Shown here one piece after another: positions 1,501-60,868 of a stretch of 64,000 nucleotides of DNA. Within the stretch, counting starts at the first letter, position 1. The number at the start of each line of letters is the position of its first letter. The position numbers and the translations under genes were made by a program. The DNA is taken from positions 54,312,001-54,376,000 of the forward strand of contig OZ024747.1 of assembly GCA_964016885.1 (NCBI GenBank), written 5' to 3'. This DNA comes from Eledone cirrhosa (Eukaryota). Under the pieces are notes generated by a model that worked only from the letters and a program-made list of their open reading frames with translations, made no database searches and was not told where the DNA came from.

Positions 1501-1714
1501 ATAACGAAGGAAATGTGGTAAGGAACCAGGTGGACCATAACGCACCAAAGTACTCAATACTTGAGGTAGTAGAGTGGGTAATAGGAACCAGTAAGACCCC
1601 GACAGCTGAGCTCAAGCCGTTTCGACGGCTAATTCTGGACGTCCAGAATTAGCCGTCCAGAATTAGCCGTCGAAACGGCTTGAGCTCAGCTGTCGGGATC
1701 TTACTGGTTCCTAT
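1501..1714. mobile_element. Fold-back PLE 3'-end insertion, family A copy 1
   Basis: Arms 1581-1640 and 1641-1714 are inverted, with centre ctggac|gtccag plus a 14-bp duplication; contains HHR 3' half GAAAC-GGCTTGAGCTCAGCT-GTC; (TA)n on both sides. Confidence 0.8.
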
Positions 1715-2247
1715 ATATATATATATATATATATACAATTTATGTAGCCAATAAAGTCGATGACAATACATAGGTACATACACACTAATGCACTAACACA
1801 TACACACTCATATATTAAGATATATATATATATATATATATATGTGTGTGTGTGTGTGTAATGTCATATTCTCTATCTTGGCTGTAATATACAGCGATTG
1901 TGATTCCGGAGCTATATGCATCGAATACAAAAACTGCATTTTAGCCGTCGCTGTGGTTGAACAACGTGTCAAAGATCACAATTCAGGTTGTCGTAGACGT
2001 CTTGAAGGTCATTCTGTGAACAGTGGATCAGAGGTGCTATCGGATATATTCAAATCAAAGATCATTTCCTGTTATTACATAATGGAAATGACATTTTGCT
2101 TTTAGATAGTTACGCCTATATACAAAATTGTACACTTATGTGCACAGACAACATACTATCATCTATATATCTATCTATGTTTGTGTGTGCCTGCCCATCT
2201 ATCAATCTATATATCTATATATCTACACGTCTAACTACCTCTCTCTC

Positions 2248-2750
2248 TCTATATATATAAAGTTGTAGTTCTTGTCTATTCCTTTGTTTGTTTGTTCACA
2301 AACTCCTCCTATGGTTTTGAAGATAGACCCCGAAAACCATATATATTCTGAAACTACATTGCCCAGGCTATTTGGATAAGTATATTTCATTTTAATGAAA
2401 GGGTTACCCGGGGGCACAATACCCCACTGAAAGATTTTTCTTTTCGATTTATATGAAATTGAAACCATATTTAAATGACAAGATACGATGCCTATTCACA
2501 AAAGTTTTGAATTGATATTTAGAAAAAAAATATTTAAAAGAAACAAAATAAGAATAAGATATAATAATGTAATTTTGATTTGATATATTACAATAAATAA
2601 TGTTTTCCAATTTTTCATGCATTACATTTTACATTGAGTAATATTGAAATGCAGAATTTTCTCCATAAATGATATCACTGATTTAAGATCAATCATCATT
2701 TTCTTAGAAAAAAATCTGTGGAACGCAGCATGCGCGTGTAATTCGGCTAG
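2248..2750 (+). mobile_element. Non-autonomous Helitron-like element
   Basis: 5' TCTATATATATAAA followed by (TGTT)n; 3' GC-rich hairpin acgcagcatgcgcgt then CTAG|T. Confidence 0.5.
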
Positions 2751-3161
2751 TATATATATATATATATATATTCACGGCAAGTGGAATGGTAGCACAGTGG
2801 TCTGAATAATCAAAGATGTGGCTTCGACTTCCCATGTACGTAAATACTCATCTTTTCCCATTTCTTAGAGGGTTCTTAACCCCACTATCAGGCTAAAATT
2901 TCTATAGTCAAAAATACGGCGAAAGCTTCTATTTCTAATTACAAACACGCTCGCTGTTTCAATACAAACTGGCTTATATACACACACGCACACACACATA
3001 TATATATATATATATATATATATACATGTAAAGTTATATTTAAAATTGTTGGGTTACAACTAGTAAATATTTATAACTGATATAAAAGCACTCGACAAAT
3101 ACTTGGAGTATATTTACAATATTAAATAAATGGAAAACTATATTTATAAAACCATATTTAT

Positions 3162-3224
3162 TTCATTATATATATTTCGGGGATATCATATTAACAATAT
3201 GCTATGCCTTCATCAGACAAAATA
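3162..3224 (-). ncRNA. Minimal type-I hammerhead ribozyme, PLE pLTR family B (element about 3030-3290)
   Basis: Minus strand: TATTTTGT-CTGATGA-stem II AGGCATAGCATATT..AATATGATATCCCC-GAAA-TATATA-TA-ATGAAA; homologous to 18539-18602 and 55108-55168. Confidence 0.75.
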
Positions 3225-3348
3225 CAATATAAACAGTTTTATAGATAAATATATTCGACATACCGTAATAAACATCAACTTCATTTGAAGAGGTTCACTC
3301 TAGCAGGTTCACTCTAGCAGGTTCACTCTCTCTCTCTCTCTCTCTCTC

Positions 3349-4305
3349 TATATATATATATATATATATATATATATATATATATATATATATATATATA
3401 TATATATATATATATATGTATATATATATATATGTATATATACATATATATATATATATATATATACATATACATATATATATACACATAAACATATATA
3501 TATACATATACATATATATATATACATACATATATATATATACTTATCTATATATATATATACATATATATATATACATATATATATATATATATATACA
3601 TATATATATATACATATATATATATATATATACAATATATATATGCATATATATATATATACATATATATATATATACATATATATAAATATATATATAT
3701 ATATATATACATATATATATATATATATATATATATATATACATATATATATATACATATATATATATATACATATATATATATATATATACATATATAT
3801 ATATATATATATATATATATATGTGTTTATATATATATATATATATATATATATATATATGTATGTATATATATATATATGTATATATATATATGTATAT
3901 ATATATATATATATATGTATATATATATATATATATATGTATATATATATAAGTATATATATATATGTATATATCTATATGTATATATATATATGTATAT
4001 ATATATATATGTATATATATATATATATATATATACATATATATACATATATATATATATACATATATATATATATACATATATATATATACATACATAT
4101 ATATACATATATACATATATACATATATATATATATACATATATATATACATATATATACATATATATACATATATATATATATATATATATACATACAT
4201 ATATATATATATATATATACATATATATATATACATATATATACATATATATATATACATATATATATACATATACATATACATATATATATATATATAT
4301 ATATA
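3349..4305. repeat. About 1 kb interrupted (TA)n microsatellite
   Basis: Direct reading; representative of dozens of (TA)n tracts in the window. Confidence 0.97.
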
Positions 4306-4345
4306 TAGAGAGAGAGAGATAGATAGATAATATGCTTTGATAAAC

Positions 4346-58329: not shown

Positions 58330-58630
58330 TGGTAGACATGGCCATGTGGTTAAGTAATTTATCTCACACTCTTCGGGTTTATTGGTTCTGTCCCAAGCTG
58401 TGCCACATTAGACAAGTGTTTTATATTACAAACATGGTTTGGCCAATACTTTGTAAGTAATATTTGTTAGACGAAATATATACAGGAGCATCTTTGCATG
58501 TGAGTGTGTGGCAGAGTGTATATCCGTAGATATAGCGGTTCCACTAAGTGAGGTCCATGTACTGCTGTCAATATACCCGACTAAATAGCATGGCTATATT
58601 TTAATGACTGAAACGATTAAAAGAGTAAAA
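58330..58630 (+). mobile_element. Decayed CORE-type tRNA SINE (second SINE family)
   Basis: catggccatgtggttaagta..ggttctgtcccaagctgtgccacattagacaagtgtt..tagacgaaa; tail aatgactgaaacgattaaaagagtaaa resembles recalled octopus SINEs. Confidence 0.55.
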
Positions 58631-58730
58631 ATATTAGTGTTACTTATATATCTGTTCCTTCAGATATTGAGTCTTTTATACTTAGTTAAAAGTTGTATAT
58701 AGTTATGTATGTATCGTACGGTTAGCTATG

Positions 58731-58883
58731 TCTAGGAGTAGGAAGCTGTCAATACCTGACGTTATCTCTAGGGACACGGGAATCAGTAGACAGGACCTGG
58801 GGGCGGCGATGGGGGACAGGGAATTCTGGGGCATGAGAGTGAGATCCATCATCTCGACAGTAGTCGACGAATGATGATGATGA
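58731..58883 (+). mobile_element. RTE-clade LINE extreme 3' end
   Basis: RKLSIPDVISRDTGISRQDLGAAMGDREFWGMRVRSIISTVVDE* followed by a (TGA)n tail. Confidence 0.7.
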
Positions 58884-59672
58884 GCTATGTGTCACACAAC
58901 ATTTTCATACATCATTCTTGGCCCCGTGGAATATATACATGATTCGATTTCTTCACAACTTGTGTTTTATATCCCTTCAAAATTAAGTACCAAAAAATAC
59001 CATTAACTATGGGATGACCTGATATATATATTGAACCAAATATCTTCGTGATATAGGATGATGTGTCGTTCAATTCCTCATAGCGGCCTATGGCAACTTC
59101 ATATTTTAAGGGTCTTCACGCCATATTATAAGGTATCTTTACAGCATTTTTACGGTTGCGCACTTTCTATATACTTATATAAATACATACACACCCCATA
59201 TATATATATATATATATATATATATATATATATATATGGGGGGGGGGATGTATGTGTATATATATATAAGTATATATATATATATATATATATATATATA
59301 TATATATATATATATATATATATATATATATATATATATATATATTGTACATAGATCTGTTGAGTATGCATGCCAATTCTAACACATATATATCCTAGAA
59401 ACGATCGTTAAATAATGAACTTTTTTTGTTTAATATAAGGAACTGTTTCATTGTTTTATTCATTATTTTTTTTTATATTTTATATATATATATATATATA
59501 TATATATATATATATATATTGTCCGGGAAAGACTGCCCTAACACCGGCCAGAGTTACCTCCCTTGACCTGCTGCAAAATTAAAACAAGATATTTTTGCGA
59601 GCAATGAACCTTGCTGTGGATTTAACCCCAAAAACTCTTTCCGAGGAATATAAGGAACACTTGTGATTATTT

Positions 59673-59718
59673 ATGCCCTTGAGAAGCCCAACTGGGCGAA
59701 ACGTACGTAGGTGATATT
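59673..59718 (+). ncRNA. Hammerhead-like motif with variant core (element 59520-59935)
   Basis: CC-TTGAGAA-GCCC-AACT-GGGC-GAAA-CGTACG-TA-GG then AATAAA; (TA)n on both sides of the element. Confidence 0.6.
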
Positions 59719-60559
59719 CTAAATAAACATGTTTTAACGGTCTATTCTCTGATTTTTTACTTTCCCACGTGCTTACGCTCTGCTAACTCTCTAGCCCACT
59801 AAATATTAACACTTCGAATATTTAATACTGCCGGCACTAGTATCGAGCACCTTTGGCATACGCTACTTGGCAAATAACTATATGTATCACCTATCCCCCT
59901 TTTTTTTCTCTTTCTCGATACGTAAATACTATATTATATATATATATATATATATATATATATATATATATATATATATATATATATATATATGTGTGTG
60001 TGTGTGTGTGTGTGTGTGTGTGTGTGTGTGTGTGTGTGTGTGTGTGTGTGTGTGTGTGTGTGTGCGTGTGTGTTTGTGTGTGATGTGTATGTGTGTGTGT
60101 GTGTGTGTGTGTGTGTGTGTGTGTGTGTGTGTGTGTGTGTGTGTGTGTGTGTGTGTGTATAAGAAAATGAGGTTTCTTTAAATGAAAAAAAACAAGAAGC
60201 CCTACAGGAGTGAAAGTATGAGAAAAAAAATGGAAAATTCAGCTAGGTTCTTTTTAAGAATATTTATTTGTTTCTTTACCGGTTTCACAGTTCTTATGCT
60301 ATTCAAAAGTAGAATTGAAATGTAGGGTTTGTGGTTTTTCTCGCATCTTTATATATGAAAGTGATATCATTTTTTTCAAAATGAATACGAAAAATTGGAA
60401 GGAGGTAGGTGGAGAGGTTAAAACAGCTCAAAATACAGTAAATTATTATAATAAACAGTTTATAAAGCTATGTCTCATACTTCATTGAACATTTTTTCAA
60501 ACAACGATGTATACAAAATCCTATTGTGTTAAAAATAATAATTACGCACGAAGCAAATT

Positions 60560-60868
60560 ATTCATTAAAGTAATTACCAAATACGTTTTTACATTAAATA
60601 TTGATTTATGAACGTTGGGACTTTTCAAAATTAGTTATTTATAAGTAAGTATCTCATTATAACTCTCAATAAACAGTTCTACAGCTCAGTAAGAGAATTT
60701 GCTTACATTTAAAAAGACTCCAAATTCTCTGGCTGTGCTGTAGCGCTGTTTAGTGAGACTTCTAATGGCATAGTTACTTATAAATAACTGATGCTGATAA
60801 GTCCCGATAAGGGACGAAACGTTCGTAAATCAATATTTAATGTAAAAATGTAAATACTTTAATGAGTA
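60560..60868. mobile_element. Old diverged fold-back element with HHR at 60789-60833 (+)
   Basis: TGATG-CTGATAA-GTCCC-GATAA-GGGAC-GAAAC-GTTC-GTA-AATCA; 60560-60710 is a decayed reverse complement of 60722-60868. Confidence 0.7.

Follow-up and report, generated by a model that had tools for sequence, protein, structure and literature searches.

Long and short 3' ends are paired in fold-back insertions of Penelope-like elements at (TA)n tracts of Eledone cirrhosa

Fold-back insertions in the window

The window analysed here, 64,000 nucleotides from the 3.0-Gb genome of Eledone cirrhosa (G000:C7:54312001-54376000), carries a series of fold-back insertions in which two oppositely oriented copies of one sequence are joined 5' to 5', mostly between (TA)n microsatellites (Table 1). 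At least three of the families involved are Penelope-like elements (PLEs), the sister group of telomerase. The two-armed insertions follow a pairing rule: if one arm stops at a long site, its partner stops at a short site lying 40-95 nt upstream of it, and the two never share a site.

A sequence-only reading of this DNA had named 16 such loci. Inverted arms are in fact present at all 16, with local-alignment scores of 35-801 against a maximum of 18-30 in shuffled sequence (10 shuffles for short loci, 2 for long ones), although the arms at 19580 are weak (28/35 identical). The loci sort into ~13 families at the DNA level, namely A with three loci, B with two and 11 families with a single one; the earlier figure of at least 8 families is thus exceeded, while the claim that they are unrelated fails at least for A, B and K, which are akin at the protein level. 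That reading placed most outer ends at TA microsatellites, and 11 of the 16 loci do have (TA)n on both sides; of the other five, (CA)n adjoins 17539 and 19580, (GA)n adjoins 50437, 31207 borders an AT mosaic, and 60560 has one side without a tract. The family A tail at 1504..1711 runs on into an open reading frame (ORF) in two loci, L262 and L274; the 3' ends of family C form two clusters 93 nt apart; and both arms at 56003..56187 begin at the 5' strong stop.

Table 1. Fold-back insertions of the window and a single-armed comparator (window positions; RT, reverse transcriptase; pLTR, pseudo-long terminal repeat; reference, family B reference)
Position	Strand	Feature	Arms	Remarks
1504..1711		Family A (Hydra-clade PLE) fold-back	long 1504-1641 (-), short 1654-1711 (+)	duplicated junction insert; 80-nt tail
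12884..13080		Family C fold-back	long (-), short 13031-13080 (+)	~90-nt tail
17132..17450		Family D, staggered	short (-), reaching further 5'; long 17307-17450 (+)	predicted hammerhead core in short arm
17540..18408		Family E	17540-17926 / 18021-18408	left arm extends through the element's own (AT)n
19580..19712		Family F, old weak hairpin		28/35 identical; right end on (CA)n
27580..27737		Family A fold-back	short arm ~40 nt	
28521..28932	-	Family B inverted arm within RT ORF		3' end at reference 6909, TA fused to (TA)n
28933..30332	+	Family B forward arm, RT ORF fragment		3' end at reference 6970, 61 nt beyond that of the partner arm
31213..31558		Family G	31217-31295 / 31389-31467	93-nt spacer; tail on right
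33986..34110		Family H	30-bp arms	
35004..37235	+	Comparator: canonical CCHH-type PLE (RVT_1 + GIY-YIG)		single-armed copy
49170..50084		Family I fold-back		internal tandem, re-duplicated junction; predicted outward hammerhead core on left arm
50439..50844		Family J	50527-50598 / 50778-50849	~90-nt tail
54628..55023		Family K (Hydra-type)	54707-54856 / 54865-55023	80-90-nt tail
56003..56187		Family B pLTR fold-back	short 56003-56053 (-, site 5424), long (+, site 5500)	predicted hammerhead core in both
56218..56419		Family A fold-back		
56456..56778		Family L	56456-56528 / 56623-56698	tail on right
60540..60866		Family M, old fold-back		118/136 identical; degenerate hammerhead core on right arm, by eye

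Identity of the elements

Family B is young (99% identity, 944 candidates) and has an intact ORF of 712 aa in a tandem unit of ~5.3 kb, and the hairpin at 56000 is its pLTR end, just upstream of that ORF. Intact ORFs lie at L124:5546-7684 for family B and at L274:1916-4069 (minus strand) for family A. Past its long end, family A continues into a 717-aa ORF in 3.54-kb tandems, and a relative of family K continues into a similar Hydra-type ORF. These links bear out the PLE origin and the 5'-to-5' joining claimed before; judged by the direction of the ORFs, the 3' ends of both arms point outward in families A, B and K, at 6 of the loci.

The proteins of A and B (712-719 aa) carry RW(R/K), DKT, YRDD, CxCX5C, CxxC and CxH motifs without CCHH; these columns are kept in 112 homologues, and the YRDD and xY..YIG columns are invariant over the alignment. 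Compared by eye, the motifs agree with those of Hydra-1_Obim. Other hallmarks of endonuclease-bearing PLEs are also seen: a single ORF with RT and C-terminal GIY-YIG motifs, partial tandems forming pLTRs, an inverted 5'-truncated copy and a one-sided tail. Judged by these motifs, families A, B and K are endonuclease-bearing PLEs of the Hydra clade, and A and B are new families of this known clade, with units of 3.5 kb and ~5.3 kb. The predicted fold (predicted local distance difference test 93.7) would comprise an RT palm, a thumb, a Cys linker and GIY-YIG-like strands, and its secondary structure appears to leave no room for an RNase H sheet; sequence searches of PDB gave no placement of the A and B proteins.

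A hammerhead core with stem II is predicted in B, D, I and K, and a degenerate one can be seen by eye in A, while no hammerhead was found among the 150 of 249 Rfam matches listed. As for families C-J, L and M, no continuation into an ORF was found in the 1.9 Mb of DNA fetched, so that K alone is linked among the single-locus families; nevertheless two clusters of 3' ends, 75-93 nt apart, occur in C, D, I, J and L.

Pairing of long and short ends

In family B the long site lies at reference 5500 (4,742 exact matches fused to (TA)n) and the short site at 5431 (3,403 matches) and also at 5424; a reversed-pattern control gave 0. In a census of 100 long and 66 short ends listed for C1 0-83.7 Mb, neighbours facing outward within 12 kb of each other are long/short in 25 of 25 cases (P ~1e-8); one short/short pair, 8.5 kb apart, lies outside the range of the long-end list. 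The ORF-anchored set of 39 loci (one a duplicate; L155 is complex, and L148, whose middle is unclear, was kept out of the count) is equally uniform, as all 15 loci with both ends readable are long/short. Family A gives 72 of 76 pairs long/short by threshold and 0 of 76 long/long; among the other four, inspection shows L288 to be long/short, the long arms of L306 and L136 align nearly as far as the end, and L015 is cut by the locus edge. In family K, a short-site partner 81-92 nt short is found in 13 of 30 loci, 14 have no partner within 1.5 kb, 3 are of other kinds, and none is long/long.

How often a partner occurs differs among families. A partner arm is present at 28 of 30 long-end loci in family A, whereas in the CCHH-type family to which the copy at 35004 belongs an inverted partner lies within 1.5 kb at only 7 of 30 loci, with 4 clean long/short pairs ~40 nt apart; at least 6 further loci of the 30, as well as the copy at 35004, run straight into (TA)n at the 5' end. 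The dominance of fold-back insertion is therefore family-dependent, and the idea that it is a dominant mode across many families holds for A but not for the CCHH-type, the layout itself having been published already in passages of PMC8557442.

A pair within the window itself deserves attention. At 28521-30332 family B was primed in the middle of its ORF, at a site used once in the genome, and the two ends are still 61 nt apart. The previous view that one arm reaches the true 3' tip and the other stops at an internal TA needs correction, as the apparent tip is itself an internal RNA site 50-95 nt ahead of the start codon. Element and target overlap by 1-5 nt, namely by TAT at both A sites and by TA, TATAT or just T at those of B, whose most frequent short end has a single T in common with the target.

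Some apparent short/short pairs turned out to be motif artefacts: the case in B is long/short, and in K the long-end motif had failed to match at loci which are long/short. An enrichment of long-arm stops at the short site (5/52 in A) is suggestive only and weak in B, and was not used. Finally, a small stem is predicted 5-12 nt past each of the two priming sites of families A and B (L262:1450-1490 and 1530-1550; L124:5440-5470 and 5507-5520).

Genome-wide occurrence and polarity

A sample of 60 arbitrary 10-kb stretches (600 kb) contains 61 tight inverted pairs, or ~1 per 10 kb. An outer end lies at (TA)4+ in 33 of the 61 and both ends do in 1 of 61, compared with a background of 526 of 27,526 positions (1.9%) and 50 of 2,524 direct-repeat pairs. 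Among 62 de-duplicated hairpins, the hammerhead-core pattern points only outward in 12 and only inward in 1, and is absent from 49. Where one arm is flush to the tract (33 hairpins), the other overhangs by 35-54 nt in 6 cases and by 67-107 nt in 21; 4 of the rest span an internal tract and 2 have a longer overhang. Because of this enrichment at (TA)n, the hammerhead polarity and the overhang lengths, the fold-back layout is real, polar and genome-wide. With 27 clean hairpins in the 600 kb, short PLE-derived hairpins in the genome number about 10^5 in order of magnitude.

At the 16 loci of the window, a strict scan for the hammerhead core gives outward matches at 17129, 49168, 54628 and 56000 and one weak inward match at 17539; degenerate cores seen by eye suggest outward polarity at 12883, 31207, 33985, 50437 and 60560. 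PLEs also chain inside (TA)n tracts, and (TA)6+ tracts number 982 in the 600 kb. Moreover, the 3' untranslated region of family B (L124:7870-10040) holds a ~2-kb (TA)/(TG) mosaic and family E an internal (AT)n at window 17451-17538; these elements therefore spread the microsatellite that they target.

Separate synthesis of the two arms, probably on a common template

The 5' extents of the arms argue that the two were synthesized separately. In short B pairs (n = 32) the short-site arm reaches further 5' in 18, the long arm in 7, and 7 are equal; in A pairs (n = 52, one duplicate included) the short-site arm reaches further in 20, 13 are nested and 19 equal; and in long B loci the short-site arm reaches further in 7 of 15. 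In six pairs (L200, L207, L218, L004, L266 and L267) the arms do not overlap at all. Inserts are found at 33 of 58 junctions in A and 25 of 45 in B, though some may be alignment ends, and junctions without an insert overlap by 1.6 nt on average versus 0.6-0.7 by chance. As a genomic signature, this is what would be expected of two cDNAs started from two target ends and joined head to head with microhomology, as in L1.

The arms also share their alleles. Across 48 arm pairs of family B, alleles agree in 348 of 350 polymorphic comparisons, where 220 are expected; these pairs have 58 shared rare differences and 100 unshared ones over 16,120 bp, and many of the shared variants are private to the locus. 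Family A gives 281 of 291, where 171 are expected. In a tree of 61 pLTR copies the arms group by locus, and tandem copies do likewise. The 5' ends of the arms also pile up, within 5364-5379 in B (67 of 158 arms) and within 1383-1394 in A (121 of 151 arms). The peaks fall 31 (B) and 30 (A) nt after a TATA-like box, so that this sharp boundary in A and B is likely the 5' end of the RNA, or transcription start, with candidate start positions at B 5365 and A 1387. Among 19 pairs in which an arm reads through the 5' stop, the partner stops at it in just 1, against 20 of 20 otherwise (2x2 table: 20/0/1/18). The shared alleles, the matched 5' stops and the 61-nt ectopic pair favour priming of both arms on one RNA region.

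Several other routes to such hairpins have to be weighed. The most serious is an asymmetric dimer that uses two separate RNAs of the same source locus, one subunit being committed to each site. This would account for the stagger, the non-overlap and the long/short pairing, and even for the shared alleles if one locus dominates expression in the cell; L1 ends, too, can extend on different mRNAs according to passages of 10.1101/2024.12.14.628481. However, there are many source lineages and yet no long pair mixes them, a 5'-stop arm is combined with a run-through arm in just 1 of 39 cases, and the ectopic pair still keeps its 61 nt; we thus regard two RNAs as rather unlikely, though well ahead of the routes below.

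It is improbable that the tail and the inversion arise only after cDNA synthesis, through an endonuclease that cuts two sites in its own pLTR and so resolves a DNA intermediate in hairpin or palindromic form. Craig et al. do ascribe the tail to endonuclease-mediated resolution in a passage of PMC8557442, PLE nucleases cut their own pLTR region in experiments of PMC11167929, and identical alleles would result; but in vitro both boundaries of the tail are start sites of reverse transcription according to the latter paper, and neither non-overlapping arms nor independent kb-scale 5' ends fit a single hairpin. More improbable still is a snap-back, in which the cDNA folds and copies itself back toward the target until it stops at an internal TA. 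Shared alleles and the nested pairs would follow from it, and a few junctions do lie at natural hairpins (27578, L001), where it may explain some loci. As a general route it is excluded by the stagger, because a self-copied arm must nest within the tail-bearing arm, and it cannot give non-overlapping arms or the zero-loop palindrome at L216.

The least credible are two independent insertions in one tract followed by deletion or gene conversion, miniature inverted-repeat transposable elements (MITEs), and fold-back chimeras of long reads: although elements do chain within (TA)n tracts and conversion between inverted arms is possible, against this group of readings stand the strict long/short pairing, 69 distinct junction coordinates among the 76 family A pairs, arms that share rare alleles despite 100 unshared changes in 16,120 bp, and short reads from another study. 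Specifically, the constant interior and symmetric termini of MITEs or fold-back DNA transposons are absent, as the junctions vary and the ends are always asymmetric, and the raw Illumina reads (three samples of that one study) contain short ends running into (AT)n in 428-583 reads, long ends in 316-379, and opposite-strand joints including the staggered 5373/5443 and 5386/5433; the reads over window 30420-31550 did not span the junction at 31207. Ordinary MITEs and read chimeras, which the sequence-only reading had named as outcomes that would refute it, are thus rejected. What it had missed is the coupling of the ends, one long and one short, and the origin of both arms from one template.

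A model for the insertion

Taking together the architecture, the polarity of A, B and K, the long/short pairing, the stagger, the shared alleles, the 5' pile-up and the junction microhomology, we consider it probable that the hairpins come from obligate twin priming, in which the two cut ends both start on a single RNA. From these data we infer a double cut, the priming events, the use of one RNA, a dimer, the transcription start and the joining chemistry. In the proposed scheme, the GIY-YIG nuclease would likely cut both strands of the (TA)n target, and both target 3' ends would then prime on the same RNA, with one start at the short site and a second one 40-95 nt downstream, at the long site. 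If there is no RNase H, the RNA would stay intact, and the downstream enzyme could displace the upstream cDNA, so that the same region would be copied twice; the extra stretch beyond the short site would be the known one-sided tail. Each cDNA would extend until drop-off or the RNA 5' end, after which the two cDNA 3' ends may be joined through a few nucleotides of microhomology or by template jumping, in many cases with a small templated insert; each cDNA would serve as template for the second strand of the other. More specifically, and with a confidence only slightly better than even, we suggest that two enzymes travel in convoy: a dimer, taken by analogy from the published prediction for the Anolis element PAc, would hold both cut ends and start both on one RNA at a built-in spacing (~40 nt in the CCHH-type, 60-95 nt in the Hydra-type), the second cDNA replacing ordinary second-strand priming.

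The sequence-only reading had likewise proposed two-sided priming, driven by the self-complementarity of (TA)n. Separate synthesis of the arms, as seen from stagger and non-overlap, agrees with it; TA self-complementarity as the cause is conjectural, since the overlap is 1-5 nt and the Anolis PLE extends both strands in vitro without homology.

Several points weigh against twin priming of one RNA by Hydra-clade enzymes. Pfam detects no RT or GIY-YIG in the A and B proteins, a GIY-YIG match being obtained in 1 of 9 scanned homologues which is neither A nor B. No target duplication was seen in any of 62 pairs (0/62), where (TA)n would hide one, and no empty site was found when the flanks of the 62 pairs were compared with the 1.9 Mb of fetched DNA, two matches being chained elements. 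Two-sided synthesis is not universal, because single-armed copies exist (L010, L022, L226, L236, L238 and L257, with at least 6 of 30 CCHH-type loci and window 35004). No further ORF-internal pair was found besides that of the window, so the argument from fixed spacing comes from one locus. Alleles disagree in 10 of 291 comparisons in A and 2 of 350 in B, and the 5'-stop table pools loci ascertained differently. As to the transcription start, the 5' stop of family K is sharp although no canonical TATA box precedes it, and the Drosophila Penelope promoter is TATA-less according to a passage of PMC2377424. Last, an asymmetric dimer loaded with two RNAs of one source locus would leave most of the same signatures.

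Comparison with known systems

In L1, twin priming is a minority outcome, with a variable internal second site and little overlap. The non-overlapping pairs described above resemble it; unlike in L1, both sites are fixed and close together here, and the same RNA region is usually copied twice. The process itself, in which both target ends prime cDNA and a head-to-head join leaves the 3' ends outward, is summarized in passages of 10.1101/2024.12.14.628481, which credit it to Ostertag and Kazazian (2001).

For PLEs, PMC8557442 already describes an inverted copy truncated at its 5' end and a tail on one side only (Fig. 2 legend), as well as the preference for (TA)n, and calls the mechanism 'still undefined', and inverted pLTRs with a tail and partial tandems are also described in parts of PMC3846280 and the Fig. 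1 legend of PMC2377424. Passages of PMC8557442 further state that nearly all Hydra-clade families insert in (TA)n and that RWK, DKT, CxCX5C, CxxC with CxH and the lack of CCHH mark the clade. Families A and B resemble the published clade, including Hydra-1_Obim, in the C-terminal endonuclease, RW(K/R), DKT, CxCX5C, the lack of CCHH, CxxC with CxH, the pLTR hammerhead and the (TA)n target. They differ in tails of 69-93 nt versus 30-40 nt and in the 2-kb TA/TG mosaic of B, and a pairing rule is absent from the passages of PMC8557442 consulted. Compared with the inverted pLTR and tail published for PLEs, the two ends here are mutually exclusive and staggered and their alleles are shared; the ~40-nt spacing of the CCHH-type pairs corresponds to the classic PLE tail length.

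The closest experimental system is Poseidon PAc of Anolis (Frangieh et al. 2024, PMC11167929), for which both strands are cut and extended in vitro, no homology is needed, a dimer is predicted, and the tail is set by two internal start sites close to the pLTR-ORF junction. In that account there is no strand difference in start site and the two sites are not tied to one inverted insertion, whereas here the sites pair within each insertion and the target overlap is 1-5 nt. Passages of PMC5753468, PMC13282606 and 10.64898/2026.07.22.740005 hold nothing on inversion. In the literature searched, which did not extend to subscription papers and most supplements, there is no statement of site pairing within an insertion or of arms from a single template. 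The architecture is therefore known and the families are new ones of a known clade, while the genomic case for obligate twin priming, most likely on one RNA, is strong.

Other features

Up- and downstream pLTRs of tandems carry common locus-specific variants (L140, L159, L121, L133 and L153); tandems therefore seem to be regenerated from one RNA copy per insertion, by a circular template or a 5'-to-3' jump, and circular RNA templates have been proposed for PLEs in a passage of PMC4209133. The reads also contain head-to-tail joints of a 74-78-nt unit with the family-B hammerhead, a retrozyme-like minisatellite (L124:5351-5428), and a 1.08-kb tandem array of pLTR ends lies on C1 (G000:C1:83680743-83687290).

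Besides the loci of Table 1, families A and C are represented in the window by unlisted solitary arms or an old hairpin among 19335-19490, 26686-26733, 31601-31722, 40063-40175 and 50366-50402, and an additional weak hairpin lies at 26464-26551. A further PLE ORF (62151-64000), in three frames with stops and frameshifts, begins right at a (TA)n tract and leaves the window, and a LINE-type (long interspersed nuclear element) RT fragment on the minus strand (48333-48836) ends at a short TA run; neither has a Pfam match. A ~200-bp repeat resembling short interspersed nuclear elements is abundant in both orientations and not tied to (TA)n (6749-10924, 18869-19054, 38599-39124 and 51935-52440), and a 37-bp minisatellite with long GGT/GAT-rich arrays occupies 43195-46170 and 22749-23534. 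Sub-threshold Rfam microRNA matches fall at 12983, 27660 and 56300.

Conclusions

How tandem and inverted PLE insertions form is named an open question in passages of both PMC8557442 and PMC11167929. The pairing rule makes this question directly testable in the existing in vitro system, and it predicts an answer to second-strand synthesis which differs from that of LINEs. If a built-in spacing does govern how two enzymes start on one RNA, inverted copy and tail alike would be the normal product of the reaction, recorded by ~10^5 hairpins in this genome. In annotation, such PLE hairpins could pass for MITEs or microRNA precursors.

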